A DNA stretch of 64,000 nt from a virus (lineage: Duplodnaviria > Caudoviricetes), in IMG/VR virus record IMGVR_UViG_3300014204_013734, positions 317,281 through 381,280 of that record, one strand, 5' to 3'. The notes below the pieces were generated by a model. The model saw only the letters and a list, made by a program, of their open reading frames with translations. It did not search any database and had not been told where the DNA came from. Positions 5,749 through 37,300 of this stretch are shown piece after piece; position 1 is the first letter of the stretch, and each line of letters opens with the position of its first letter. Position numbers and translations under genes: made by a program.

Positions 5749-6377
5749 ACGATTTCCTTGAAGCTTGTATCAGCGATATCGGGACCAAGAAGGATTATCC
5801 CGCTTTTCAGAGCACCTTCTGCAACCGTTGCCGGAACCGAGAATGTGTCCACGCCAAGTGGGCGGCCGACAAGTTTGCCGTCCGTGTCGCGGTGCAACCG
5901 GACCGGATGTTACATCCGCAACAGGCGGACCCAACAAACCCAAAATACGCCCAATTGACCGATTTTGTGGATAATTTGCGGGAAGCAATGCGTCTTGAAA
6001 TTGCTGACCGACGAAGGGATTGGGAAGTGCCGGAAATCCCTATCCTTGACGGTCGTGATGATATGGCGAATCCTGAAGTCACCCGTGTTGTTGACAATGC
6101 GGTTCGCACCTTGGCACAAGCCAAGAATCCTGACTGCATCCTTCCCGATCTTGAAAGTAAAGTTCCTGAGAAACCCGTACCGCCAAAAACAAATCAACAA
6201 ACCCCGGTGCCCAAGGCTCCAACCAAACCAGGGATGGGCAACACCCCGGTAAAGGACGGTGTAATGGTCGGTGGTGGTCGTAAGGTTCAATCTGAACCAG
6301 AAGACCCTTGGGAACCAAAGAAAAAAATTGATATCGTGGAATCAGGGGCGAAGATCACGCTTGGAGGAAAGAAATGA
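5745..6377 (+). CDS. hypothetical protein, Cys-rich N-terminus, Pro-rich C-terminus
   Basis: ATGA overlap with upstream gene; FCNRCRNRECVH. Confidence 0.65.
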   Translation: MNDFLEACISDIGTKKDYPAFQSTFCNRCRNRECVHAKWAADKFAVRVAVQPDRMLHPQQADPTNPKYAQLTDFVDNLREAMRLEIADRRRDWEVPEIPILDGRDDMANPEVTRVVDNAVRTLAQAKNPDCILPDLESKVPEKPVPPKTNQQTPVPKAPTKPGMGNTPVKDGVMVGGGRKVQSEPEDPWEPKKKIDIVESGAKITLGGKK

Positions 6378-7477
6378 ACCAGATACCTACTGAATTGTTT
6401 CCCCTTTTGTCCTTGATGACAAAAATCTTGGTTAAAGAAGCCCCAGGGATGGGGATTATCATGGAAAAGGCTAAGGGGGGGCAACTGTCTGAAGCGGAAG
6501 CGTTTCAGGAAATGGTCAAGTTGGTTGAATCTACTCCGGGATTGAAGAAGCGGTTGGAATCCATGGCGGGTCCTTTGCAGACCAGGATGCAGACGCCACA
6601 GCAGAACATGTTGTTCCAACCCAAACCAAAGGGCCTTCCCGGGTTGAATCCGCTTTTCGTCGGAGCCCTTGCGGAAAAGTTGCAGTTTGACGGGGACATC
6701 CCGGAACTGAGGACAGGGCCTTTGCCTGAAGGTGTTTCCCCTGCCGTTCCCGTTGATACGGATGCCAGAAATCCGGTTGCTTTGGGAATGATGCTTGGCC
6801 AGGCATCTGAAGAAGTCAAGACTCTCATTGAACAGCACGAAACGGAACGTCGCACTGCTATTGAAGCGGTAGCGGCCAGTGACGGGACCAATCTGTCTTT
6901 GCTTAAAAAGCACGCCGATTTGGTAGCGGCAGGACCGAATGCGGCAAGGGACGTTGCCTTGTGGGGATCCCAGGAAACGGATATGCCATCTTACAGGCGC
7001 GGAATGCCTGTTCCGGCACGTCAGGTAACGACTCCGCAGGGGAAGGATATTGCTACGGTTGCGAAAGAACGGGCCAAGGAAATGACTTGGAAATTCTTTT
7101 CGACGACCGCCGGGCGCCGGACAGTTGTCCACACGATTGGGATGTTGGTGTCAAAACGGTTGGCGGAACAAGGTATCCACGCTGCATGGAAAGGTGTAGG
7201 CAAGAGCATGGACGGCGAAGTAGTAGCAGCACACCTGTGGAAGGTAAATCTGTCCGGTCCTGGGAATTCCCAGGAAAACTTCGCAATGGTTGATACGGCC
7301 GCCGCCGCCTTGGCGGTCGGGTTGCTCCGCAAACTTGGGGACCAAAGGCCAGAAGGTTTGCAAATTGAAGTGTCTACCGTGGACGCCGTAGCTGACCGAG
7401 AAGTCGGGTGGGAAGCCCGTCTGGTTGCCCCCAAACCGAAAGCATGTCTTGATTTCAATGCCGGAGCAGGAATCTGA
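6374..7477 (+). CDS. hypothetical protein
   Basis: 367-aa ORF, GGAGG RBS, ATGA overlap. Confidence 0.7.
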   Translation: MNQIPTELFPLLSLMTKILVKEAPGMGIIMEKAKGGQLSEAEAFQEMVKLVESTPGLKKRLESMAGPLQTRMQTPQQNMLFQPKPKGLPGLNPLFVGALAEKLQFDGDIPELRTGPLPEGVSPAVPVDTDARNPVALGMMLGQASEEVKTLIEQHETERRTAIEAVAASDGTNLSLLKKHADLVAAGPNAARDVALWGSQETDMPSYRRGMPVPARQVTTPQGKDIATVAKERAKEMTWKFFSTTAGRRTVVHTIGMLVSKRLAEQGIHAAWKGVGKSMDGEVVAAHLWKVNLSGPGNSQENFAMVDTAAAALAVGLLRKLGDQRPEGLQIEVSTVDAVADREVGWEARLVAPKPKACLDFNAGAGI

Positions 7478-23681: not shown

Positions 23682-24446
23682 TTAAGCGATTTTGAACAGC
23701 ATCCGGATGCGATCAGGATCAATCACGATTCCGGCAGTCTTGGCGGCATCCCCGGCTTCCTTGCCAACCTTCAAATCAGGCAAGGCTTCCGGTGAGATTT
23801 GGTAACGTGTGTACAAACCGATTGGCAACATAGCCCTAATTACATCCTTCGCGGCAGACTTCGGTTTCTTCCGATTCGTCCAGGGAGAAGATTTTTCCAA
23901 CACCTTTTCCCCGAGCTTGACCCCATCAAGGTAAATGGCGCCGGGTTGGGGGGAACGGGGATCGTCGGGACGGGCAGCTCCAACATACACCTTGACCCCT
24001 TTGACGGGCACTCCGTTCACCTTGAGGGGTTCCCAAACGGGATCAGGAAGGTCCGAACGGTCGTCCCAACTGTCTTTTGACCCGCTGTCTTGGAGAACGC
24101 GCCGGAACTGTTCCTGGATTTCCTGGATGGCTACCGCCGCATCCTGGATTGTCATGTCGGCATGTCCGGCGTCCAGGGTCGCTTGGGCAATGTCCTGAAT
24201 GAAATGAGGGCTTTTCGCCATCAGATCTTCCAGCTTCCGTTCGGACCGTTCAACCAGGGCCTTGTATTGGAACCCTGCCCAAACAAGGACGTGGACCAGA
24301 TCGTCCCCGTACACCTGCCGGTCGCTGGCTTTGCCCCGTTCAACGCCCTTCTTGCGGACGACTACGGATACCAAGGTTCCTTGACCGGAATCCCCGATTT
24401 CCGAAAGTGTTCCGGCAAGTCCTGAATGCAATGCGTTCGTTTCCAT
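23682..24446 (-). CDS. hypothetical protein
   Basis: GAGGTG RBS, 254 aa. Confidence 0.7.
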   Translation of the reverse strand: METNALHSGLAGTLSEIGDSGQGTLVSVVVRKKGVERGKASDRQVYGDDLVHVLVWAGFQYKALVERSERKLEDLMAKSPHFIQDIAQATLDAGHADMTIQDAAVAIQEIQEQFRRVLQDSGSKDSWDDRSDLPDPVWEPLKVNGVPVKGVKVYVGAARPDDPRSPQPGAIYLDGVKLGEKVLEKSSPWTNRKKPKSAAKDVIRAMLPIGLYTRYQISPEALPDLKVGKEAGDAAKTAGIVIDPDRIRMLFKIA

Positions 24447-24464: not shown

Positions 24465-25160
24465 TCACTTCTGACCACCTGTTTCCAGACGGGCAACTTG
24501 TTCCAAACCTATTTTGATTCGTTCCTCTTCTTTGCCAGGGGCACACACAACTACCCAATCCCAATCGTTGTCACACCAAGCAAACGCTGCCGCCCGGTCC
24601 GTCGTCGTGAACATCGGAATGTTAAGAACCGGGTCCGTTATGACCCGGTAGCAGATGAACTGTTTGCCGTCCGGGCGTTCCCATACGGAATGGGTTATCT
24701 TGACATGCAAGGCTTTTGTCCCGGTATCCAGAGAAACCAAGAACCTAGCCGAATGGAGATGGGCTTGCCCATTTTCATCCTTGACAGCCATTGTCCAAAA
24801 CCGGTTGACGGGCCAAGCCCCTTCTTTCATCAAACGGATTTTGGTTTCAATGCGGTTTTCCTTGACTTTATTATCCTGCTTGTCGAACCACATTTGTTCA
24901 ACGCAGGATTGCTTGTTTCTGCATGCCCGGATCACGACGGACATGATCGGAGGCCAAAACAGGATCATAGCCAAAAACACCAGTAGGTGTTTCCACCATA
25001 TAGGGGGTTCTGACGATATTTCATCAGATAGCAGCCGTTGCATATCCAACACGTAAGCCGGATTTCTAATCGCAGCCGCGATTTCCATCAGGATAAATAG
25101 AACCAGGGTCAGTGCCCCCAACCCAACCCATGCAATCAATGCCGTCGACAAAAAACTCAT
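24465..25160 (-). CDS. membrane protein (two N-terminal TM segments)
   Basis: GGAGG RBS before MSFLST; hydrophobic helices. Confidence 0.65.
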   Translation of the reverse strand: MSFLSTALIAWVGLGALTLVLFILMEIAAAIRNPAYVLDMQRLLSDEISSEPPIWWKHLLVFLAMILFWPPIMSVVIRACRNKQSCVEQMWFDKQDNKVKENRIETKIRLMKEGAWPVNRFWTMAVKDENGQAHLHSARFLVSLDTGTKALHVKITHSVWERPDGKQFICYRVITDPVLNIPMFTTTDRAAAFAWCDNDWDWVVVCAPGKEEERIKIGLEQVARLETGGQK

Positions 25161-25205
25161 GTGCAACCTCCAGTAAGAACCCCTTCTTTCAATACCCAAA
25201 ACAGT

Positions 25206-25409
25206 TCAGATATCTTCGTCCTGATCTGTATCTTCCTGATCCGTTTCTTCTTCTTCCAGAAGTTCCTCAGATTCGTCTTCCATTTCTCGTTCCCGTGTGG
25301 CTTCCCTTAGACGCCGTGCTGTCGTTTCGTGGGGGCCGGCCTTGCGTCGTTTTGAAGGAACAACGTAAGGATTCCGGGGCTTTGAAGTGGGAACGTGAAG
25401 TCGCTTCAT
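25206..25409 (-). CDS. small protein, basic N-terminus and acidic C-terminus
   Basis: ATGA overlap; KPRNPY...AGPH. Confidence 0.55.
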   Translation of the reverse strand: MKRLHVPTSKPRNPYVVPSKRRKAGPHETTARRLREATREREMEDESEELLEEEETDQEDTDQDEDI

Positions 25410-26311
25410 GAAGGAATTCCTTCATCAGAGTCACTCTTTGTTTCTTCAACGGCAGGTTCTGCATATTCCGTCGGCGGTGTCGGCGGCGCATCCGAATGTT
25501 CGGTTTTGGAAATAAAAACCAGGTTCTTTCCGGTAGGGGTTTCCTGGATTTCCACAATCCCCTTAAGCTGGAGCCGGTGGAGGGTTGCAATCCTCTTTTG
25601 ACCGTCCCTTAGACGGCCGTTGGCAAAAACCCATTTGGATATGAAGTACCCAACACTTACAAAGGGAAATCTGGCCATTGCATTCTTCAACTCTGAAATA
25701 AAGATTTTTTCGTCCAAGGCGTTTTGCTCTGCTTCATCAAGCGTTTCCGTTTCAGGTCGGAAAATAATCTGTGCGGGTTCAAATGCGGCCGCTTGTCCTT
25801 TAACAGCTTCTTCCAAGGCGAGACAACCGTAAGCCGCCTGCCTGATTCTTGCGGACGTACCGTTTGCCCAAACGGCAGCCCATCCGGTTTTTCCAAAGAT
25901 ACGGATGGCATCCAACGCTGGAGCCATGTCAGCATCTCCCGACACGACAATGGCGGCATCATAGAGGTCCAACGCAGCCATTCTGACGATGTCGGCCACC
26001 ATGGTCGTGTCAACTTCCTTTTCCACAACCTTTTCGTGAGCTTTCCCACATTCCGGGCACCACACGGTGCCTGTTTTCAGTGGAAATCTGCTGACAAAGA
26101 ACCCTTCCAGCTTTTCCATGTCGTCTAAAGACACATCAATGCCCGTTCCGGGCACCGTTCCCAGGTAGTATCGGGCTTCGACCAACCGGGTCCCTCCAAT
26201 TTTCTTTACGAGAAAATCCGCTAATTGAGCCCAGTCCAGTAAACCCCCATGCACTTCGCCTTTGCTAAGATGATGGAAATTTTGTCCATCGATGAAAATG
26301 GCGACTCTCAT
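25406..26311 (-). CDS. NYN (LabA/DUF88, PIN-like) domain protein with Zn ribbon
   Basis: AIFIDGQN, EKEVD, VSGDADM; CPEC insert. Confidence 0.88.
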   Translation of the reverse strand: MRVAIFIDGQNFHHLSKGEVHGGLLDWAQLADFLVKKIGGTRLVEARYYLGTVPGTGIDVSLDDMEKLEGFFVSRFPLKTGTVWCPECGKAHEKVVEKEVDTTMVADIVRMAALDLYDAAIVVSGDADMAPALDAIRIFGKTGWAAVWANGTSARIRQAAYGCLALEEAVKGQAAAFEPAQIIFRPETETLDEAEQNALDEKIFISELKNAMARFPFVSVGYFISKWVFANGRLRDGQKRIATLHRLQLKGIVEIQETPTGKNLVFISKTEHSDAPPTPPTEYAEPAVEETKSDSDEGIPS

Positions 26312-26363
26312 TAGAAACCGTTCCTTTCTTAATTAAGACTAAAAACCAATCTTTCCCGCCTAA

Positions 26364-26392
26364 ACTACCCGAAACCATCTCGTTCCAAGCCG
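26364..26392 (-). promoter_or_regulatory. CGGCTTGGAA-N13-GGTAGT motif (copy 3, faces NYN gene)
   Basis: reverse-complement exact motif. Confidence 0.75.
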
Positions 26393-26403
26393 GAAAAAAG
26401 TTA

Positions 26404-26432
26404 CGGCTTGGAATTCTATCGGAACCGGTAGT
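26404..26432 (+). promoter_or_regulatory. CGGCTTGGAA-N13-GGTAGT motif (copy 4, faces nucleotidyltransferase)
   Basis: exact motif, back-to-back with copy 3. Confidence 0.75.
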
Positions 26433-26478
26433 ATGGGGTAGTTGCTACCGAAGGTAAGAATTTTTAGGAGGAAAGACC

Positions 26479-27423
26479 GTGAACTTCAATATCCAAGAAC
26501 ATACGATCTTCCGGTGTCTGTCCGGCAGTCACGCCTACGGCATGGCAACCCCTGAATCGGACGAGGATTTCAGGGGCGTGGCCATTCCGCCGAAGGAATA
26601 CTTCCTCGGCTTCATGCAGCGGTTTGAACAGTCGGAATCGAAGCCCAGTCCGGGGCATGATGTTCCCGACGAAGTCATCTATGACATCCGAAAGTTTGTC
26701 TCCCTGGCGGCGGACAACAACCCGAACGTCATGGAACTTTTGTTCATGCCCGAGGACACCATTGTCCATTCCACTCCGTGGTGGGAACGTCTGACGGCAA
26801 TCAGGGAATCCTTCCTATCCACCAGGGTCCGGTATACCTATGGTGGATATGCCGTGGCACAACTCAAGAGGATCCGGCAGCATCGGAACTATCTGCTGAA
26901 TCCTCCGAAGAAACGGCCGGAACGGTCCGACTTTGGGCTCCCCGAAAACCAAGCTTTCGTCGATTTCAAGACCAAGGTGGAAGAAGCGAACAAGGCGGGG
27001 CTGGATGCCAGGGCCCTGTTCGGGGAGGACATCCAAAAGGAAGCACGGTATAACCGTGCCATGGCCGACTTCCATTCTTGGGAAACCTGGAAAAAGAACC
27101 GCAACCCGAAACGGGCCGAACTGGAAGCCAAGTTTGGCTATGATTCAAAGCATGCGGCTCATTTAGTACGTCTCATGCGACAGGGTTGTGAAATCCTGGA
27201 AACCGGTAAGGTGTTTGTCCGGCGCCCTGATGCCGAAGAACTCCTGGCCATCCGTCGTGACGGCATCTGGTCTTATGACCAGTTGGTTGCCTACGCGGAA
27301 GAAATGGAAGCCCGTCTTTCCAAGATTTACGACGAAAAACTGTCCCCGCTTCCTGCGAATCCTGACCGAAAACGGATTGACGACACCGTCGTCGGAATCG
27401 TGTCGGATTTCCTGGGCTTGTAA
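26479..27423 (+). CDS. pol-beta superfamily nucleotidyltransferase (RlaP/YcgL-like)
   Basis: GSHAYG...SDEDFRG, NPNVME, GYDSKHAAHLVRL, ELLAIR. Confidence 0.88.
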   Translation: MNFNIQEHTIFRCLSGSHAYGMATPESDEDFRGVAIPPKEYFLGFMQRFEQSESKPSPGHDVPDEVIYDIRKFVSLAADNNPNVMELLFMPEDTIVHSTPWWERLTAIRESFLSTRVRYTYGGYAVAQLKRIRQHRNYLLNPPKKRPERSDFGLPENQAFVDFKTKVEEANKAGLDARALFGEDIQKEARYNRAMADFHSWETWKKNRNPKRAELEAKFGYDSKHAAHLVRLMRQGCEILETGKVFVRRPDAEELLAIRRDGIWSYDQLVAYAEEMEARLSKIYDEKLSPLPANPDRKRIDDTVVGIVSDFLGL

Positions 27424-27425
27424 TC

Positions 27426-27471
27426 ACTTTGGGGGTATTTTTGCCAGTACTGGCAAGAATACCCCCAAAGT
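27426..27471. repeat. 46-bp near-perfect palindrome
   Basis: ACTTTGGGGGTATTTTTGCCAGT|ACTGGCAAGAATACCCCCAAAGT, one T:G mismatch. Confidence 0.9.
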
Positions 27472-27558
27472 AGTCAATTATGGTTTTATTCGTTCCCCAT
27501 TGGTGAAAGCACTGGCCGTTGTAAGGCCAATGGACACTTTTGGTGAGAAGGAAAAACC

Positions 27559-28527
27559 ATGAAATCCGAAGCCGCATTCAATCCCAAAGACATTGGCACG
27601 ATCAAACCGCCCGCCCGCATCGACCAAGAAGACGCTTGGCTTCTTGAAGACGTTGACCAACGTTGGTTTTCCGAAATGGAAAAGCTGTTCCACAAGGAAG
27701 CCGGTCTTCTGGGACGGGTTTCCAAATTAGCGGCCGACCGGCCCGAACTTCGGTCAAAGTTGGTCCCCTTTATCAAGATGGCAGGAATGACCGTCCCTGA
27801 AAGGTTTGCTTCCTTGAAGAAACTGGCCCACAAGCCCATCCTTGAAAAGACGGGTCTTACACCTCGTGCGGTTTCACAAGGGTTAGCGTTCATGGTCTAC
27901 AACATCGACCAGGGAAGCAACAAATCCAAGTTTTACGAAGGGCTTATCCTTGAGTCAGGGGGTGGGTTTAGGTTGATTCGGCGTTGGGGCGCCTTGACCG
28001 ATTCCGCAGCGACGGGACGCATTGACGGAGCGCAATTTGATGAAGACCCGCGGTTCCTGTTTTCGTCCCTTGGGACGGCGAAACGAGAACTTGCCGCCCA
28101 TTTTGCTAAGCGCGTTTCCCATGGCTACATAGACGCTTTCGGTCCTGAAACCCCTGTCAAAGGACAGTATCCGATTGGCCTGTCCAGGGATGTGGGTTTT
28201 GGATGGAACACACAGTCTATCACCCGGTGTATTCCACAACTGAAGATCCTGATGAACTATTTCAGGGCGGCTCATGACGAAGTGAGAGAAACCGGAAAAT
28301 CCGATCTCATCCAAGGCATCTTGGCAAAGGCCGTCAGAACGGTGAAGGAGGTCGCCCATGCTGACAGCAGCATGGCCCAATTGCTTATCAAGATGATGAA
28401 AAAACCCCTCCAGAGGGTCAAGGGCGACAAACGATTCATTCCTGATTTTGAAGGCCGTGCCCTTGCTATGGAACTTGAAGCAATCATCAGTTACCTGGAC
28501 AAACAGATGTCTTTGTGCCGGGATTGA
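27559..28527 (+). CDS. WGR-like domain protein with [KR]xA-rich N-terminus
   Basis: NIDQGSNKSKFY...IRRWG...FAKRVSHGY; KLAADRPELRSKLVPFIKMA. Confidence 0.7.
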   Translation: MKSEAAFNPKDIGTIKPPARIDQEDAWLLEDVDQRWFSEMEKLFHKEAGLLGRVSKLAADRPELRSKLVPFIKMAGMTVPERFASLKKLAHKPILEKTGLTPRAVSQGLAFMVYNIDQGSNKSKFYEGLILESGGGFRLIRRWGALTDSAATGRIDGAQFDEDPRFLFSSLGTAKRELAAHFAKRVSHGYIDAFGPETPVKGQYPIGLSRDVGFGWNTQSITRCIPQLKILMNYFRAAHDEVRETGKSDLIQGILAKAVRTVKEVAHADSSMAQLLIKMMKKPLQRVKGDKRFIPDFEGRALAMELEAIISYLDKQMSLCRD

Positions 28528-28553
28528 CCTTTCAGGTAAAGGAAGGTTGAAAA

Positions 28554-29411
28554 ATGGCTATGCCCGCGACCGTCAAGTTGTTGGTGATTGATGATGACGC
28601 CGAAGACCGCCGCTTGGTCCACGACTGGCTAGACGATGCGGATCGGGTCAACTTCAGCGTAGAGGAAGCGTCTACGGCGGAAGAGGGCCTGGAAAAGATG
28701 GAAAAAGGCCGGTATGACGTGGTCCTCCTGGACTATCGTATGCCGGAAAAGGACGGGTTCTGGGTCCTGGAAAGGATGCGTGCCCTTCGTTTGCAAGTCC
28801 CTGTTGTCATTGTCACCAGTCACGGGGACCGTAATGTCCAGACGCAAGCGTTTGAACTTGGCGTTGCGGACTACCTGGAAAAGGGTGCTTTCACTCCTGA
28901 ACTCCTTGAACGCACTTGTCTCTATGCCATTGGCCTGAATGAACGGAAAATTTCCGAAACTTCCGGCCCCGGCGTCGGGGTTCTCATGGAACAGTTGGTA
29001 TCCTTGACCCGTGATTCTGTCAAGGCCCAGTCTGATACGGCCCAGGAAATCCGGGAAATGCGCCGGGAACTGGCGTCAGGATTTGCATCGGTCAAGGAAC
29101 AAGCGTCTGAACACGATAAAAACTGCCAGGACAGGAATACGGCGGTCGTCGGAAAAATAGAAGAACGGGATGCTCCGAAGGGCAAATGGCTTCTGGATTG
29201 GATTGCGGTTCACCCGCTTGCAACCCTGATTCTTGCCCTTATCCTTCTGGCTTCTATTCTCGCACTTGGAGTATTGATTCCCTTGTGGGCGGAACACGTC
29301 ACGGCGGACCAACTCAAAGTGTTGAAAGGTTGTGGGATGTTGCTCTTTTTTCCCGTAATGGGATGGGAAGTACACAATGAATCTGACGGAAACGGATCGC
29401 AAGGAACTTGA
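28554..29411 (+). CDS. receiver (REC) domain fused to coiled coil and C-terminal TM helix
   Basis: VIDDD, LLDYRMP, VTS, YLEK; hydrophobic PLATLILALILLASILALGVLIPLW. Confidence 0.88.
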   Translation: MAMPATVKLLVIDDDAEDRRLVHDWLDDADRVNFSVEEASTAEEGLEKMEKGRYDVVLLDYRMPEKDGFWVLERMRALRLQVPVVIVTSHGDRNVQTQAFELGVADYLEKGAFTPELLERTCLYAIGLNERKISETSGPGVGVLMEQLVSLTRDSVKAQSDTAQEIREMRRELASGFASVKEQASEHDKNCQDRNTAVVGKIEERDAPKGKWLLDWIAVHPLATLILALILLASILALGVLIPLWAEHVTADQLKVLKGCGMLLFFPVMGWEVHNESDGNGSQGT

Positions 29412-31050
29412 ACTTCACAAGGCGCTTATTGAATTGGGTGGACGCCTTATCAGGAACACGATATCCTTGGAAGAAATGGCATGGTTGGTATTAACCCCGG
29501 TCATGCGGTTGACGGGAACTACCGTCGGATTTGTGTCCTACATCGACCCGGAAACCAAGGAAAATGTAGGATTCCTGAACGCCCCTGGAATTGCAGCTTG
29601 CGTAGAACAGAACCAAGGCAGAATGGTCTTTCGGTTTCCAACCGGCAAGGACGACCCCTTGTGGGGTTTTAGTCAACCGGATACCCGTACAGGTTTTTTC
29701 ACAAACAAACCCGTCAAGCACCAGATATCTAAAAACATCCCTTCCGTCGTTCGTTTTCCCATTGACAATTTCCTTTCCGTTCCTGTCGTAGCCGGTAGCA
29801 ACCTGTTAGGCCACGTTGCCTTGGCTAATAAAAAAGGCGGCTTTTCAAACGAAGACATCCGAATCGTCAACCTGTTAGGGGAACTTTACGGTTTGGCTTT
29901 AGACCGCAAATTCTACGAACAGGCCTTATTGGATGCCGAACACAAGGCAACGGAAAAGCTGAATCATAGGTTCAGGGCATTCATGGAAGCGACTCCCGAC
30001 CGGTTGCACATCATCTCTTCAGACGGGGTTTTCCTTGAATCCCACCGGGGAGCCCTTCCCTTCGTGGAGAGTGATCCCTCTAAATATATTGGCAAGACCC
30101 TGCATGATTTGTTTCCTGCTGATGCCGACAAGATGCTGGACAAAGTCCGGGAAGCATTGGCCATGGACGGGACACCGATCATTTGGGAATACACAATATC
30201 CCAACTGCCTGATCATGTTTTTGAAGGCCATCTCATCAAATGTGGTCCTGATGAAGTAATGACCGTCATCAGAGAAGTCACCCAAGCGAAACAGTTGCAG
30301 TCCGATCTTGAACGCAAAGTCGAAGAACGGACTTTGGAACTCAGCCTATCCAATCAAGCGTTGCAGTCCTTCGCCTATGCAGCGTCACACGACCTTCGGG
30401 AACCGTTGAACAAGATACGGGCATATGGGGAACGGTTTGAACGTACACACCCCAACCTAGATGAAAAAGGCAAGGAATACATCGGTGTCATGGTCACGGC
30501 GGCCGAACGCCTGGCCCAGTTGGTAGAGGATCTATTGGTATATTCCAAGGCGGGCGGGAAAGATGAAGCATCCCCGGTTAAAATCCCCCTAAACAGGCTT
30601 ATTGAAGAAACCTTGGGGGATCTTGACGAATCCGTCAAGAATTCCGGCGCCATCGTAGAAGTCGGGGATCTTCCAACGGTTGAAGGTCACGCTGGAACCT
30701 TGCGGGCCGTTTTTCAGAACGTCTTGTCAAATGCTCTAAAATTCCATAAAGTGGGACAACCCCCGAAAGTTCTGGTGTCGGGAAGGGTAGACGGTAGTAT
30801 GGCATTCGTGTCTATACAGGACAATGGAATCGGTTTTGATCCGGCATACAAGGAAAAAATCTTCGCTATTTTTAACAGGCTTCACACCCGGTTTGAATAT
30901 CCGGGTACAGGAATAGGGTTGGCCCTTTGTCGAAGGCTGTTGGCCCAATGCGGCGGAACCGTAACGGCGGACGCCAGACCCAATGAAGGAGCTGTTTTCA
31001 CGATCCAAATCCCGCTCAAATTCTCCTCTGCATTTCCAAAAGGAACCTGA
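29377..31050 (+). CDS. cytoplasmic GAF-PAS sensor histidine kinase
   Basis: NFLSVPV..GHVALANK (GAF); PAS-like; ASHDLREPL, NVLSNALKF, DNGIG, GTGIGLA. Confidence 0.93.
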   Translation: MNLTETDRKELELHKALIELGGRLIRNTISLEEMAWLVLTPVMRLTGTTVGFVSYIDPETKENVGFLNAPGIAACVEQNQGRMVFRFPTGKDDPLWGFSQPDTRTGFFTNKPVKHQISKNIPSVVRFPIDNFLSVPVVAGSNLLGHVALANKKGGFSNEDIRIVNLLGELYGLALDRKFYEQALLDAEHKATEKLNHRFRAFMEATPDRLHIISSDGVFLESHRGALPFVESDPSKYIGKTLHDLFPADADKMLDKVREALAMDGTPIIWEYTISQLPDHVFEGHLIKCGPDEVMTVIREVTQAKQLQSDLERKVEERTLELSLSNQALQSFAYAASHDLREPLNKIRAYGERFERTHPNLDEKGKEYIGVMVTAAERLAQLVEDLLVYSKAGGKDEASPVKIPLNRLIEETLGDLDESVKNSGAIVEVGDLPTVEGHAGTLRAVFQNVLSNALKFHKVGQPPKVLVSGRVDGSMAFVSIQDNGIGFDPAYKEKIFAIFNRLHTRFEYPGTGIGLALCRRLLAQCGGTVTADARPNEGAVFTIQIPLKFSSAFPKGT

Positions 31051-31055
31051 AACCC

Positions 31056-31499
31056 ATGCCTGAAACCGCCCCTTTAGTCATTTTCGCTGAAGACGACCTT
31101 GAAGATTGGGACCTCATCAAGGAAGTTCTGGAAGAATGTGAAGAGTGCCGATCCGGCGCCCTCAAATATGAACACGTGGTTGATGGGGTCGCCCTGATGG
31201 AACGGTTGACCAATCCCGTACCTCAAAAACCAGACATGGTGATGCTGGACCTCAAGATGCCAAAGAAAGATGGTGCGGAATCCTTGGAAGAAATCCGGGC
31301 AAATCCGGAACTCAGACACATTCCGGTCATTATTCTGACCACTTCCCGTTTGGAAGCCGACATCTTTGAAGCTTATCACCGCGGGGCAAATTCCTATGTT
31401 GTAAAACCAGTAACGCACGACACCATTAAACAAGCACTCCACGATATTCAGTACTATTGGACTAAAGTAGCCGTTAAGCCATCCAAAAACCATGCCTGA
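31056..31499 (+). CDS. stand-alone receiver domain (Rcp1-like)
   Basis: AEDD, MLDLKMP, LTTS, GANSYVVKP. Confidence 0.93.
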   Translation: MPETAPLVIFAEDDLEDWDLIKEVLEECEECRSGALKYEHVVDGVALMERLTNPVPQKPDMVMLDLKMPKKDGAESLEEIRANPELRHIPVIILTTSRLEADIFEAYHRGANSYVVKPVTHDTIKQALHDIQYYWTKVAVKPSKNHA

Positions 31500-31974
31500 A
31501 ATGAAGGTTCGTGTTGCCGCCCGTTGGGTAGGGAAATCAGCAAAGATTCCCGAAGTGGTATACGTGGCGATCTTTCTCCCACCAATGGAAAGTGCCCGTC
31601 TGGTCAAGAAATTTGGCAAGACACACCCCACTTTTTTAGCCAAACACATGACAATATGGTTTCATGAAGACGGCAGTAAACTTGACTTGGTGAACATGCC
31701 TTTTGGAAAAACGATCCCCTTGAAGATCGTCGGACACGGGGAAAATGACAGGGTCCAAGTAGTTGTAGTGAAACCCCCTGCCGGATTCAAACCCAAAGCA
31801 GGTCGTGTGCCCCACATCACCATGTCCCTCGCCCCTGGAGCATCCGCCAAAGAATCCAATGCTCTGTTAGCCAACCCAGAAAACATTGTCTGGGAACAAG
31901 GGTTACTGACCGTGGAAGGGAAGTTAGGTTGGTGGGATGGGGAAAGAGAACGGTTTGACTCTCCAAACGGGTAA
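31492..31974 (+). CDS. 2H phosphoesterase family protein with RVAARW leader
   Basis: two HxT motifs (KHMTI, PHITMS), SAKESN. Confidence 0.75.
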   Translation: MPEMKVRVAARWVGKSAKIPEVVYVAIFLPPMESARLVKKFGKTHPTFLAKHMTIWFHEDGSKLDLVNMPFGKTIPLKIVGHGENDRVQVVVVKPPAGFKPKAGRVPHITMSLAPGASAKESNALLANPENIVWEQGLLTVEGKLGWWDGERERFDSPNG

Positions 31975-32029
31975 TCTTCCTACAGGGCAATCCGAATCAG
32001 GATTTCCATGAACATATGAGGTTAACAGC

Positions 32030-32686
32030 ATGTTAACAAGGGATCAAGTTAAGGAACGTATCCATTACCAGAAGGAATCCCTCACCAAATGTCGCAAAGA
32101 AATTCCAATCCTTTGCAAGGAAGCCGCTACAGAAAAAAACGTTTTTAAAAGTAGGGAGTTGGAACACGAAGCAGCACTTAAACAAGGCGGAAAAGGGGTT
32201 GTAGGACAAGAACATCGGGAATTTCTTCTTGTTTACGCGTGGATGAGAAACCGTCGTTATCGAACTGTGGAACGACGGACGGCAATTGACAACATAGCTG
32301 ACCGTTTTCTGGCAGAACGTTCCTTGGAAAAACTTGTACAGAGAGTTGTGCGACACCTATCTGTCGATCGCGAAGTTATCTGGTTTTGGATGACTTTTGA
32401 TTTCCCTCCAAAGGATATTCTGGAAGGAAAGGCTTCGTTCATGGTGGCGGAAATCGCGAAGAAAAAGATGGAGGAAGCGGAAAAAGACGTCCAAGAAGCT
32501 GAAAAACATTTGGCTAGAGCCGAAGCACACTTTGTTGCGGAAAAAGCCAGATTGGAAGCCAGTATCGAATGGGCTCAGGAAAACCTGAAAAAAGCAACCG
32601 CTGAAGCAACGTACCGCATCAAGGCTTTCGCTGAAATCAAAGCTGCCGTCGGGAATACAATTCAATCGGGTGTGGTGAAAGGGTAA
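32030..32686 (+). CDS. coiled-coil hypothetical protein (paralog A)
   Basis: REFLLVYAWMRNRRYRTVERRT shared with next gene. Confidence 0.7.
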   Translation: MLTRDQVKERIHYQKESLTKCRKEIPILCKEAATEKNVFKSRELEHEAALKQGGKGVVGQEHREFLLVYAWMRNRRYRTVERRTAIDNIADRFLAERSLEKLVQRVVRHLSVDREVIWFWMTFDFPPKDILEGKASFMVAEIAKKKMEEAEKDVQEAEKHLARAEAHFVAEKARLEASIEWAQENLKKATAEATYRIKAFAEIKAAVGNTIQSGVVKG

Positions 32687-32693
32687 TTTCAGT

Positions 32694-33353
32694 ATGAAAC
32701 CGGAAGAATTGAAGAAAGACATTAAGTCCTTAACCGTGTCCCTCATTGAATACCGCAAGAACATCAGGAAATTGATCCTTGAGGCCCGGCAGGAGGAAAA
32801 GACCGACGCTGATCGGAATATCTTACGCGAACGGGCACAAAAGGCTAAGACCAATAAGGATTACTATGGTAGGAAACAGCGTCATCTTCTTCTGGCCTGT
32901 GCCTGGTTGCGTAATTACCGCTACAGGACCGTAGAAGGACGAACGCTGGCCGACAAGGTAAAGGATCCCTGGGAAGCCCGGATGATACGAGAAAACCTTG
33001 CGGAAGCCGTTTCTAATCTACTCCCTGTTGGAAGACAGGAAGTGCTTACCTGGATGACGGTAGACCTTGAACCTCGGGAAGTTGAACGGAAGCTGTACCT
33101 TGAAGCTTTTGAGAAAGCTGAAAAAGAAGTAGCGGAAACTTCCGGAGAAACAGAATTCGCCCAGTGGTTTTTATGCGAAGTGACTACCTTTGTCAAACAA
33201 TTGGAAAACAAAGGCGAAGAATCTTTCGTTCTGAATTTGGCCAGAAAACAGAAGGAAAAAGCGGCTAAGACATTAGAAAAAACGAAGGCCCTTCTGGCGG
33301 GTAAGCAGAGGGCAAGGGACCGTGCAAAAGAAGTTGTTTTCCGGGTAGATTAG
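32694..33353 (+). CDS. coiled-coil hypothetical protein (paralog B)
   Basis: RHLLLACAWLRNYRYRTVEGRT. Confidence 0.7.
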   Translation: MKPEELKKDIKSLTVSLIEYRKNIRKLILEARQEEKTDADRNILRERAQKAKTNKDYYGRKQRHLLLACAWLRNYRYRTVEGRTLADKVKDPWEARMIRENLAEAVSNLLPVGRQEVLTWMTVDLEPREVERKLYLEAFEKAEKEVAETSGETEFAQWFLCEVTTFVKQLENKGEESFVLNLARKQKEKAAKTLEKTKALLAGKQRARDRAKEVVFRVD

Positions 33354-33688
33354 TTTGGAAGTTGTTCATTGACAATTGTAGTACCCAAGTTAGTTTTACG
33401 TTCCCAAAGAAATTCCAATCTGTAGGGAAAAACGTTTGTTGAAGAATCTTAAAGGAAATCCTTTAGATTCGCGTTTTTTCCATAAAACATCAAAATGATC
33501 GTACAGATTCAGGAATTGGGAACTCTAAGGTTCCCTTCCCACAAAAGAAGTAGGTTCGCGTTCCTAATGATTTCCATAGGTTAGGTAAGATTTTGGGTAA
33601 AAACCGTTACTTAAAAACCAAAGGGTTTTTAGGTTCACGTTTTCATCCCAAAAATCTGAATAATAACATAGGTTTGGAATGGGACCCT
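33354..33688 (+). promoter_or_regulatory. AT-rich CRISPR-leader-like region
   Basis: no ORF; TAG(G/A)TTC(G/A)CGTT at 33464, 33551, 33630; CATAGGTT at 33575, 33667; abuts first repeat. Confidence 0.55.
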
Positions 33689-33878
33689 CTTTAAAGGGGT
33701 CCGAACCCCCTTTACACGTTGAAAGTTCCCCCACCGCCACCTGCCGGACCTTGCCATGCTTTAAAAGGGGATCAGGTCCTCTTTTACACGTTGAAAGAAA
33801 ACACGTTGAACAATGGGCATTCCAGCCTCAGCTTCGGTCCTTTCAAGGGGGATACAATCCCCCTTCACACGTTGAATT
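33689..33878 (+). CRISPR. orphan degenerate CRISPR-like mini-array (3 repeats, 2 spacers)
   Basis: repeats of 37-39 nt at 33689, 33759, 33840 (CTTT[A/C]AA-hairpin-ACACGTTGAA); spacers of 33 and 42 nt. Confidence 0.62.
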
Positions 33879-33910
33879 AAAAGCAACCCATAATTCCAAT
33901 TGTCCCAAAG

Positions 33911-33945
33911 AAGTCCCCTGGTTCAAAACCACGGGGCTTTTTTTT
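33911..33945 (+). terminator. intrinsic terminator after mini-array
   Basis: CCCCTGGTT-caa-AACCAcGGGG hairpin followed by a T8 run. Confidence 0.7.
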
Positions 33946-34006
33946 GGCTATGGTCTTTACCAAAGTGGAGGGGCATCCCTACCTCCCCAACTTAAGGAGT
34001 CTTAAA

Positions 34007-34297
34007 ATGCCTATGCAGGACCGACAAGTAACAATCCTGGACGTAATTGCTGATACCGATGGGGCAGCTTTCCTCGTAGGAAGGAAAGGGAATTCCCATC
34101 TATTTGTCATTACGATCACCGGGGCGGCTACCGTCAAGATACAAGGCCGACAAAAAAGCGGTGCTTGGAAGGATTTGACTTCTACGGCAGCGAATGCCGA
34201 ATTGAACGTTGATGATTACGGTTGGTGGGAATTTAGGGCCGTTTCATCGGCGATGGGAATTCCTGCCACAGCTTCGGTCGTTTGGAGTTGGACCTAA
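34007..34297 (+). CDS. small beta-rich putative virion protein
   Basis: TAAGGAG RBS; precedes fibre gene. Confidence 0.6.
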   Translation: MPMQDRQVTILDVIADTDGAAFLVGRKGNSHLFVITITGAATVKIQGRQKSGAWKDLTSTAANAELNVDDYGWWEFRAVSSAMGIPATASVVWSWT

Positions 34298-34313
34298 GAA
34301 AGGCGTTTTGTAA

Positions 34314-37300
34314 ATGACTGAAATCAAATATCCCCCAAATGAATCGACCCCGACTGCCCACCATACAACCCACGAACCTGGGGGTTTAGACGAAGTGTTT
34401 GGCATCCCTGCCGCACCCCATGCGGCAAGCCACCTAACAGGGGCGGACCTGCTTCCCGACGCTACTGGAGTAGCCCGAGGGCTCATGTCGGCGGCATTTG
34501 CCGGCAAGGTCAATGCCCAGTTTTTCATTGACCCGAATTCCATCCACGTCGACAAAAACCGAACTGATGTTTATACCGAAGATGGAAGCCCAACATTCCC
34601 TTACAAGACCATTCAGGCAGGTGTAACCCACGCAGAAACGACGGCCACTTCTTCTAATCCTGTTATGGTGATGGTTGAACCAGGTAATTATGACGAAAAC
34701 GTGGTCATCCACAAAGACGGGGTCCATCTCCGGGCACGTGGCACTCCTTACGATACAATGATTGTCCCGACGACGGGAAGTGGGTTGACATTCACGAATG
34801 CCACTGCCCTATCTCTTGGCGTCTACAACACATCAGGCAACTATGCAGATTTGGTGAATCAGGGTGATGCGGGGCCAATGACTAACGGTATTTGGGGAAT
34901 TTCCGTGTCTTCTCCTGTTGGGAACGCGTTTCCTCCGATACGACTGCTTGGGGTCAAAGGGGATACGGCGCCGGGGACGACCGGTTTTGCTTTTGGTTTA
35001 TATATGGAGCATTGCGCTTTCGTTACGGCTAATGCCGTTGCGCCTCCCCTCTACATCAGGAATGCCAACACGGTCTTTTTGGATGTTGAATGTTATGTGA
35101 TGGGGACAGCTCCTATCACCATCATCAACGCCAACAAGGTCAATTTGTCTAATTCCCTAATTGTCGGGGATGTGTCTTCAACTTGGGATTCCGCTGATGT
35201 CAATGGGACGCCTTCCCATACAACGAATAAGTATCTGTACGGCATGAATTCCCAGATGAACAACCTCCTCTTGTCGGGGGAAGCCAAAGTTGACGATGCC
35301 TTTTCCTGGGACATCAACCAGGATATGACCCTTTCGGGTACTTCCGTTTGTACTTGCTACGAATGTCTGGTCAGAAACGACCTGACCATCGGGGCAGGCT
35401 GTGCTTTTAACTTCAAGGCATCTGGTGTTTTAGGGGACATAACGATTTCCGCTACCGCAGCAGCGTGTGTGATGGACGGCGGAGATTTGATGGGTATTAC
35501 GACCGATCCGGGTGGCCACCTGACCAGAAACATTACAAAACACCAAACGACCCACGTCACCGGCAATGACCAGATACCGGATGCTTCTGCCATCACCCGG
35601 GGGTTACTGACTCCGGCGCAATTGGCTGTAGTCACGACAATGAACGGGCACCTTCATACCGCAGTTGACGGAACAGGCAAGATTGACCAAGCGAGTAGCC
35701 ATCAATCCCCTGATACAGACGTCGGACCGACTTCACTTCATCATACGTTGGGCACAGGGGCTAACCAAGCCGCTTCTGGAACCCACGATCACACGACCCT
35801 TGTACGGACGGACGGAACCAGGGGAATGATAGCTACGGGGTCTGTTGTTGGGGCTGGGACCGTTTCTACGGTAGGGTCATCCACGACCGTTACCACAACG
35901 GGGAATGCGTTTGCTGCCCTTGCCGAATGGGACACGATCACGGCAAATGGAAAGACCGTTCAGGTTTTCGTGAAGACGGACAACAATACCGTTACGGTTA
36001 GTGAAGCGGTAGATTGGTCTGCGGGTTTTGCCTGGACGTGGAACCAAGCCTTGCACCTTCATTTCTCCCCGGATGCTTCGGATAGAACGGAATGCGGCAT
36101 TCTCTGGAATGACACGACCGGAGCTTCCACGTGGCAACTTTACACGTGGTTCGGGGAAAACGAAGAATTCCTCGGTTTCTACAATGCCAGGGCGATGTTT
36201 GATGTGATCTGTATGACGGAAGCCGGGCGTATTTCTATCAACCGGACATCGGATGCCAATCCGAGAATCCCTACTATTCAAGCCCCGGCGGTTTTTAGCG
36301 TATTCCCGCAACGTTATGCCCATGTCCTTTACACGATGGACAATGCCGCTTTTGCAGACAACACGACGGAAGCGGCTACTTCTGTCGGGACGCCATTCAC
36401 GTTCCTTGACCAAGGGATTGCCGACAGGACAAAGAACTGGACTTATTTGGCAATGTCAAGGAAATGGCAGACCTGCTGGTTGGAATTCACGACTTTTGGG
36501 GAAACCGGTTGGACTACCCATCTTGAATATTGGAAGACGGGTGCTGGTTGGACCCCTATGGTTCTTTCCACTGACGGCACGGCGAATTACACCCAAACGG
36601 GAGCCATCACCTGGGATAAGAAAAATCCTGGTGGGACAGGAGATGATTGGGGACAGACGACGACGGTAGCGGGTTACGGGAACTATTACTGGATCCGCAT
36701 CGGTTCGTTGACGGTTCCTGCCGTTTCCGACGTTCCGAAAACGCAAGCTATTGGCCCGAATGCCATCCCCAGGATTTCCGTTTACCAATCGGCTCTTGAT
36801 TCAACCCCCCGGCTGTTCATCAATCCGCAAGGGCGTATTTCCCTTGGTGGTTCGGAATTGGTAGGAGAATCCCTGCTTCAGTTGGCTACGCCGGTTTCCG
36901 GAACGATTGTTCCTGCGGAAGCGGAAGCCTTGGCGGCGTTCTATTCCGACGACCCTACCAGAAATGCCGTCATTCTGCAATTGTCCGATGCGTCATCTGC
37001 CTATCCCGTGTTGGGATTAGCCAATTCAAGGGGTTCCTTGACGGCCCCAGCGGCATTGGCGGATGGGGATCGCATTGGGGGTTTGGAATTTTTCGGCAGG
37101 ACGGACGCTTGGACGGAAACTTGTGAAATCAACGGGGAAGTGGACGGAACCCCCGGTTCGGGGGATGATCTTCCTTCCCGTTTGGTTTTCAAGACGACCC
37201 CTTCGGGGGGTGGCAGTCTGGTTGAACAATTCCGCATCTCTTCTACGGGTTTGGTTTCCACGGCTGGGACGATGCAAGCGGCCATTTTCCAAGGGGGGTC

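Follow-up and report, generated by a model that had tools for sequence, protein, structure and literature searches.

What does a phage address when it encodes its own histidine kinase together with a receiver tied to the membrane? The question is raised by a cassette at positions 28554-31499 of the stretch of DNA analysed here (hereafter the window), which is the last 64 kb of the 381,280-bp single-contig virus record IMGVR_UViG_3300014204_013734. Three coupled genes in this cassette encode a membrane-anchored receiver (P0001, the REC-tail protein), a soluble histidine kinase (P0002) and a stand-alone receiver (P0003). We tentatively propose that they belong to a phage-owned His-Asp operon with a fixed target, namely a tail-anchored membrane protein of a kind found, in receiver-less form, in the lysis cassettes of smaller phages, and that the proposed effect is on lysis timing. 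A further step, to which we give somewhat less credence, is that the REC-tail output is itself a holin, an antiholin-type or another membrane-permeabilising protein, in which case a lysis or membrane decision would be made by direct phosphorylation via a private kinase whose sensor is swapped with the host or the habitat. What appears to be new in either case is a response regulator with a phage-specific membrane output. The core of the system consists of the following features (lengths in amino acids, aa; TM, transmembrane).

28554..29411, + strand: gene for the REC-tail protein P0001, 285 aa, with a receiver, a GPGVG hinge, a conserved helix, a variable coiled-coil stalk, one C-terminal TM segment and a short outside tail
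28581..28910, + strand: receiver domain of P0001, residues 10-119 (Pfam Response_reg, E 2e-23)
28965..29069, + strand: P0001 residues 138-172, the GPGVG hinge and the helix L..LV.LTRDSV.AQ.....E..E.R, the most conserved part outside the receiver
29217..29288, + strand: single TM helix of P0001, about residues 222-245 (Kyte-Doolittle), preceded by the juxtamembrane motif W.LDWI..HP
29377..31050, + strand: gene for the soluble histidine kinase P0002, 557 aa, with GAF_2 at residues 30-176, PAS_4 at 204-305, HisKA at 329-392 and HATPase_c at 440-548
31056..31499, + strand: gene for the stand-alone Rcp1-like receiver P0003, 147 aa, Response_reg only (Pfam E 1.6e-17)

The genes for P0001 and P0002 overlap by 35 nucleotides (nt), P0003 follows P0002 after a gap of 5 nt and itself overlaps the next gene, P0004, by 8 nt. 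A preliminary description of this DNA had proposed three coupled genes, a REC-coiled-coil-TM protein, a soluble GAF-PAS kinase and a lone REC, with intact catalytic residues. The open reading frames, the Pfam matches and the hydropathy profiles agreed with the first point, and motif reading in all three proteins agreed with the second.

The receiver of the REC-tail protein carries D13-D15, D60, T88 and K110; of these, D14/D15, D60, T88 and K110 are invariant across its 15 closest relatives. Its AlphaFold2 model predicted a confident REC fold, a break at residues 134-140 and a helix at 141-202 of low to moderate confidence; beyond residue 202 a short amphipathic helix was predicted, followed by a helix at 221-248. 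The hydropathy profile revealed one TM segment, with a 19-residue Kyte-Doolittle maximum of 2.95 at residues 224-242 and 43 residues after it, and one such hydrophobic segment was seen in all 37 members of the family, at a distance of 13-43 residues from the C-terminus. As a receiver has to lie in the cytoplasm, P0001 is predicted to have an N-in topology.

The separate search of the C-terminal region that had been asked for in the preliminary description was made with residues 125-285 of P0001 as a word-based query, and it retrieved only REC+tail proteins, six in number and 260-283 aa long. The exhaustive comparison of a tail profile with 1.84 billion representatives extended the family to 37 clusters (28 at E<=1e-10), nearly all of them REC+tail proteins of 230-294 aa. 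In this family the hinge and the helix behind the receiver (P139, L144, L148, V149, L151, R153 and others) were as conserved as the receiver itself, whereas the stalk behind this helix varied in sequence and length. The TM segment was hydrophobic in 37 of 37 members and poorly conserved in sequence, W216 alone being nearly invariant, and it was flanked by two short, moderately conserved motifs, W.LDWI..HP before it and D..K.K.LK after it. The matches of the tail to PDB profiles were generic coiled coils only (spectrin, apolipoprotein), from which no family could be assigned, and the ESM Atlas yielded no usable match. The literature search found no paper on membrane-anchored response regulators, REC-holin fusions or the REC-tail family. 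In the 402-kb relative G001, a tail match (G001:C1:160252-160641; L012/L013) was reported with one in-frame TGA.

Five members of the family (P0014, P0022, P0036, P0042 and P0046) are pseudo-receivers devoid of the acceptor aspartate. One of them, P0036 (L104:4749-5456), has no kinase and lies beside InPase/T1RH-like, restriction-type genes. The existence of members lacking D60, one of them also lacking a kinase, suggests that the tail can work alone.

The kind of output that such a tail might represent was indicated by homologues that have no receiver at all. Three complete proteins of 120-153 aa with one TM segment (P0032, P0035 and P0038) retain the helix motif, the stalk, the juxtamembrane motif, the TM segment and the outside tail. 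They matched the tail profile at E 1e-11 to 3e-15, and the hhalign profile-profile comparison with the tails of the REC-tail proteins gave a probability of 99.0% (E 6.3e-18, 107 columns). Moreover, when the profile of the receiver-less proteins was compared with the genome studied here, P0001 was the single match (E 6.5e-12). At the loci L187, L188 and L190/L191, which are phage contigs (DnaB, RNR, ThyX, ligase, Pol III alpha), the receiver-less gene ends 0-3 nt ahead of a PG_binding_1-Amidase_2 gene (8363-9262 in L190) that matches PHROG endolysin/amidase families. By its position, translationally coupled ahead of an endolysin, the receiver-less tail gene occupies the classical place of a holin gene. 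Among the receiver-bearing loci, L015 has an amidase of the same type about 250 nt upstream of a gene for a WGR-domain protein, a neighbour described below; Amidase_2 genes were also found 3.5 kb away in L105 and about 5.7 kb away in L014. Another candidate, P0041, was rejected as a receiver-less homologue because it proved to be a truncated call at a contig edge.

The gene behind the endolysin in the receiver-less cassette (L190:9259-10329, also L188:2156-2878 and L191:5292-6362) encodes a protein with a VLKI motif and a glycine-rich loop, GGGYFGAVFE; in PHROG it weakly matched a T7 gp0.7-type protein kinase (E 3e-5), and it had no Pfam match. Given the loop, the VLKI motif and the weak gp0.7-type match, a kinase-like gene may accompany the receiver-less tail protein too.

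Several observations weigh against a role in lysis. The three receiver-less proteins represent one phage lineage, with 53-60% mutual identity, so the link to endolysins amounts to about one evolutionary instance together with L015. In the tree of the tail region they form one clade inside an unresolved receiver-bearing polytomy, in which gain and loss of the receiver are not separable. Another product of the receiver-less cassette, 61 aa long and hydrophobic in an N-terminal segment, could be its true holin. In the genome studied here, no recognisable endolysin lies near the cassette and neither Amidase_2 nor Phage_lysozyme was matched; the only lysis-enzyme match was SLT at genome position 119,994, about 226 kb from the cassette. 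Neither Amidase_2 nor SLT was present in the complete relative G002 or in the 76%-complete G001, and among the incomplete records G003, G005 and G006 there was no SLT, Amidase_2 being found in the fragment G005 only. In this genome, the cassette has genes of the RNA and nucleic-acid enzyme type (NYN, RlaP, WGR and 2H) as neighbours, not lysis genes. The weak sequence conservation of the TM segment is what a mere anchor would be expected to show, and beyond residue 120 P0001 matched no known output domain in Pfam, NCBIfam, PHROG or PDB. Finally, a large cytoplasmic N-terminal part combined with a short outside tail fits no holin class known to us. The suggestion of the preliminary description that the tail resembles phage lysis proteins thus gains comparative support from the receiver-less homologues that adjoin endolysins and from the amidase of L015, but not from the surroundings of the cassette in this genome. 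To that extent its idea that phosphorylation may gate a membrane effector is partly supported, the gating itself being putative.

The other two proteins have the sequence motifs of a histidine kinase and of a receiver. P0002 belongs to the HisKA-type two-component kinases by its HisKA (E 3.8e-13) and HATPase_c (E 8.3e-21) matches, with H338 in the sequence SHDLREP and with intact N, G1 and G2 boxes (NALKF, DNGIGF and GTGIGL). The hydropathy scan detected no hydrophobic segment in it, consistent with a soluble protein. The Pfam scan found GAF_2, GAF and PAS_4 and no PHY domain, so that nothing marks P0002 as a phytochrome, whose photosensory core is PAS-GAF-PHY; in orthologues, moreover, PAS stands in place of GAF or the sensor is missing. 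In P0003 the residues typical of a receiver are present: EDD at 12-14 (D13/D14), the acceptor D65, T95/96 and K117. Its residues 6-143 matched RcpA, Rcp1, RcpB and a bacteriophytochrome response regulator in PDB (entries 1k68, 1i3c/1jlk, 1k66 and 8avv) at E 1e-15 to 1e-18. These full-length matches, together with its position 5 nt behind the kinase gene, confirmed its designation as Rcp1-like. In the whole record of 381,280 bp, P0001 and P0003 are the sole two REC matches and P0002 is the sole HATPase_c match.

The order of the three genes was fixed in the related loci. With duplicates merged, the REC-tail gene was followed by a HisKA kinase gene at all 19 loci with room for it, and the kinase gene by a free receiver at all 16 such loci. 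The proteins have diverged in parallel, the identities among loci being 35-68% for the REC-tail protein, 29-60% for the kinase and 40-60% for the free receiver. Between the NYN gene and a giant 1876-aa gene, both included, L109 and the window share one gene order, which covers both flanks of the cassette. Locus scans of viral contigs and prokaryote genomes were made with a 15-row alignment, the 37-row alignment being too diverse; when P0001 was used as a single query, the scan of viral contigs found nothing.

The distribution of the REC-tail protein suggests a phage-only family. Full-length copies occurred only in viral or virus-like contigs, including records of 402-436 kb. In a set of one genome each from 185,579 prokaryote species there was no full-length REC-tail protein, only generic receivers of <=39% identity, and none was found in 50,697 GenBank phage records either. 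Any kinase match was seen in 46 of these 50,697 records, most of which appear to be mislabelled host contigs. The comparison between phages and bacteria called for in the preliminary description therefore came out as a fixed gene order in viral contigs set against no full-length REC-tail protein in the prokaryote set.

These data bear on whether the cassette is a passenger, that is, a recent capture of a bacterial two-component system without a function for the phage, or a chimera of the assembly. The domain types are ordinary bacterial ones, the closest solved relatives of P0003 are response regulators of bacterial phytochromes, and the record carries the IMG/VR tag 'provirus', all of which would suit a passenger. 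However, the same order and flanks recur across phages whose REC-tail proteins are 35-68% identical, including the complete genome G002 (435,804 bp, with direct terminal repeats), and the REC-tail protein was not found in the prokaryote genomes. Outside the phage family, the kinases nearest to P0002 do not exceed about 50% identity, and this in the kinase core alone. The GC content shows no shift between the cassette and its surroundings, and a chimera is excluded by the synteny of L109, which runs through both flanks. The tag most likely reflects the trimming of a huge-phage contig, since G002 shares the cassette and a 444-kb contig also carries a kinase identical to P0002. Thus the cassette is neither near-identical to a host locus nor chimeric, and the passenger explanation, which we consider highly improbable, appears essentially excluded.

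In contrast to the fixed gene order, the sensor region of the kinase differed among the loci:

GAF-PAS sensor: the window, L007 and L011
PAS-PAS sensor with a C-terminal REC (hybrid kinase, no Hpt domain seen): L004, L006 and L009
Single PAS sensor: L005, L010, L012 and L105
Multi-PAS sensor: L014 and L015
No sensor, HisKA and HATPase_c only: L008:1777-2550 and L114 at about 5759-6445

Because the sensors are freely swapped while the gene order stays fixed, the link from the kinase to the REC-tail protein is probably what is selected, and the selected core would be a kinase and two receivers with an exchangeable input. Phosphotransfer from P0002 to both receivers is likewise suggested by the invariant adjacency and the translational coupling of the genes.

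The same adjacency matters for the possibility that the membrane protein has a different job, such as superinfection exclusion, an early depolarisation or takeover of the host, or that of a decoy draining the envelope-stress kinases of the host. The cassette lies amid genes of early or middle type (DNA polymerase, methylase, ThyX, RNA enzymes), a receiver located in the membrane would adjoin the membrane kinases of the host, and the lone pseudo-receiver P0036 has restriction-type genes as neighbours. However, the invariably adjacent and translationally coupled phage kinase argues for a private circuit, the receiver-less homologues sit in lysis cassettes, and an exclusion or decoy activity has no positive evidence in its favour. 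We therefore regard such a job as improbable.

The operon is longer than the three genes of the preliminary description. The following elements flank them:

27426..27471, + strand: near-perfect 46-bp hairpin, 2 nt past the RlaP stop codon, without a U-tract
27559..28527, + strand: gene for a WGR-domain protein, 322 aa, the first gene of the operon, which ends 26 nt ahead of the P0001 gene
31492..31974, + strand: gene for P0004, 160 aa, 2H-phosphoesterase-like, with two HxT motifs (HMT at residues 52-54 and HIT at 108-110) and an N-terminal RVAARW..KSA tag

The hairpin is separated by 87 nt, which include an AGGA-rich ribosome-binding site, from the ATG of the WGR gene (27559), and it probably marks the operon boundary, either as a terminator or as a processing site. 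The WGR protein, the membrane-anchored receiver, the PAS/GAF kinase, the free receiver and, optionally, the 2H enzyme would accordingly make up one operon, as judged from the layout of the genes. P0004 had no match in Pfam, NCBIfam or PHROG; its orthologue stands directly behind the REC gene in L005, L010/L116 and L109.

The WGR protein consists of a WGR core at about residues 105-195 and a C-terminal helical bundle at 226-318, and its model likewise predicted a four-helix bundle behind a beta/alpha unit that resembles WGR. Eight of eight aligned orthologues matched Pfam WGR (best E 3.1e-6), while the copy in the window remained below the threshold (17.8 bits against a cut-off of 22). The alignment of the orthologues revealed a conserved KFYE...RRWGAL...TGR motif, and the top Foldseek rows were the WGR domains of PARP1/2, with weak scores (E 5e-3 to 0.2). 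A WGR gene lies immediately upstream of the REC-tail gene (0-26 nt) at about 13 of 24 related loci. In L005 and L105 a small protein bearing the canonical SWIM zinc motif (CxC...CxH) occupies this slot, and in L015 such a protein is encoded behind the last REC gene. That the L005 protein is a divergent WGR protein was ruled out by its hhalign probability of 0.1%. In addition, the 504-aa WGR orthologue at L004:3780-5294 contains an insert with a Cys-rich CxxC...CxxCH segment, zinc-ribbon-like, which echoes the SWIM proteins that replace WGR elsewhere. The WGR or SWIM protein thus appears to be a frequent but dispensable partner of the REC-tail operon: WGR is missing from the whole record G001 and from several loci that retain the invariant helix. 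The literature search found no His-Asp operon associated with a WGR or SWIM gene.

The preliminary description had held that the cassette has no DNA-binding or enzymatic output domain, which is correct for the three genes and not for the operon with its upstream WGR-domain gene. Its claim that a membrane-anchored receiver is the only visible output was not supported, the conserved WGR/SWIM neighbour having been overlooked. This neighbour leads to the explanation that the TM segment merely anchors a complex and that the free Rcp1-like receiver or the WGR/SWIM protein is the true output; the WGR protein could, for instance, be held or released by the tethered receiver and would then bind DNA or RNA and act on phage expression or nucleic-acid repair. 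WGR is a DNA-binding domain of MolR-like regulators and is present in a few jumbo phages (Iyer et al. 2021, PMC7824862). The position of the WGR and SWIM genes and the nucleic-acid enzymes among the neighbours (NYN, RlaP and 2H) are in line with such a scaffold. So is the conservation pattern of P0001, since a weakly conserved TM segment, an invariant helix distal to the membrane and a stalk of variable length typically mark a tether by which a binding site is presented. However, the invariant helix persists in G001 and at the other loci where WGR is missing, and the receiver-less homologues keep the helix, the TM segment and the outside tail beside an endolysin with no WGR or SWIM gene near. 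The motifs W.LDWI..HP and D..K.K.LK are also moderately conserved, beyond the needs of an anchor. The membrane scaffold is a serious rival that we nonetheless find rather unlikely.

On the lysis-timing proposal, the signal would travel as follows. With its exchangeable PAS/GAF module the cytoplasmic kinase would sense a cue inside the cell and autophosphorylate H338, and two acceptors would then receive the phosphoryl group, D60 in the tethered receiver and D65 in the free, Rcp1-like one. Phosphorylation would alter the association of the tethered receiver and of the invariant helix behind it (residues 138-172). As a consequence, the coiled-coil/TM tail at the inner membrane would oligomerise or bind its partners differently, so that the membrane would be permeabilised, and the cell lysed, earlier or later. 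The free receiver would compete for phosphate as a sink or serve as a second output. Both the effect of phosphorylation on the tail and the role in lysis are putative parts of this scheme.

The predicted circuit resembles several known systems in part. As in the Cph1-Rcp1 and bacteriophytochrome pairs, P0002 combines GAF-PAS-HisKA-HATPase with an SHDLREP H-box and P0003 is Rcp1-like from end to end; the kinase gene adjoins that of a receiver-only protein in one operon, and no DNA-binding output is fused to this receiver. Unlike Cph1-Rcp1, P0002 has no PHY domain, the sensor varies from phage to phage, a second receiver is anchored in the membrane and the system is phage-encoded. Branched pathways with a single-domain receiver as a sink or a second output are exemplified by DivJ/PleC-DivK-PleD and by the CheY1/CheY2 sink of Sinorhizobium, and here too one kinase gene is accompanied by two receiver proteins, one of them receiver-only. 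In contrast to those pathways, there is no GGDEF or motor target, and the output of the second receiver is a tail-anchored membrane segment, the flow of phosphate being putative.

The receiver-less homologues share with the holin/antiholin clocks (lambda S105/S107, T4 T with RI, N4 gp63 with gp62) a small membrane protein encoded beside the endolysin. The N4 pinholin gp63, which acts with the regulator gp62, has a conserved cytoplasmic region next to its TM segment (PMC12642591). By analogy, the conserved cytoplasmic region by the TM segment of the tail would be a regulatory site. The 'Receiver domain' of N4 was rejected as a REC counterpart, because the similarity is one of name and the fold is not REC. 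The tail differs from known holin families in that it has no sequence or profile similarity to them and places a C-terminal TM segment behind a large coiled coil in the cytoplasm, and it forms holes only putatively; in the huge phages, moreover, a receiver is attached to it, a dedicated kinase accompanies it and no endolysin gene adjoins it. In Firmicutes, the LytSR two-component system, which comprises a membrane kinase and a DNA-binding regulator of the LytTR type, controls the holin-like CidAB/LrgAB proteins at the level of transcription. The common element is a two-component system connected with holin-like membrane proteins and lysis, the role in lysis being putative in our case, whereas the phage kinase is soluble and the phage receiver forms one polypeptide with the membrane protein. 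The WGR motif and weak fold signal of the upstream gene, with a SWIM substitute at some loci, recall the MolR-like WGR regulators and the PARP WGR domain, but unlike in known WGR/SWIM proteins the C-terminal helical bundle matches no known family.

The wider surroundings are those of a huge phage; the preliminary description had noted phage genes around the cassette. The record has a GC content of 50.6% and 35 tRNA genes, PHROG matches to a phage DNA polymerase and a methyltransferase/methylase lie upstream, and the complete relative has terminal repeats. Directly upstream of the operon are the NYN and RlaP genes (25406-27423), an NYN-domain RNase-type gene on the minus strand and an RlaP-type nucleotidyltransferase gene that precedes the hairpin; homologues of both also flank the cassette in L109 and L110. 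Together, NYN, RlaP, WGR and 2H give the neighbourhood an apparent flavour of RNA or nucleic-acid repair. The gene surroundings are of early or middle type rather than structural or lysis genes. The GenBank phages had no DNA similarity to window positions 28000-32000, and in window positions 26300-34400 the scan for promoter and terminator consensus sites found them no more numerous than in shuffled sequence. Two further genes lie at 23682-24446 (-) and 24465-25199 (-). One encodes a 254-aa protein without a family match, which recurs, sometimes twice, a few kb from the cassette in L004, L005, L009, L010, L011, L014, L109, L112, L114 and L116; the other encodes a 244-aa protein in which two or three segments are hydrophobic and of which L011 and L112 carry weak homologues.

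In the usual picture of phage lysis timing, the clock is set by the concentration of the holin, and to our knowledge the well-studied sensory inputs to it are superinfection signals only (T4, N4 and ICP1). The present data suggest that huge phages may time host lysis by phosphorylation. If true, the final step of infection would be governed by a switch that acts directly and post-translationally and that the environment could tune. Such a signal-gated clock for lysis would be of an undescribed kind, and it would provide a concrete output for the rare phage-borne two-component systems. For signalling biology, the REC-tail protein would represent a new class of response-regulator output, in which a conserved cytoplasmic helix is joined to a membrane helix serving as tail anchor, and the related loci would form a natural series that combines a constant kinase-receiver core with different sensor modules.

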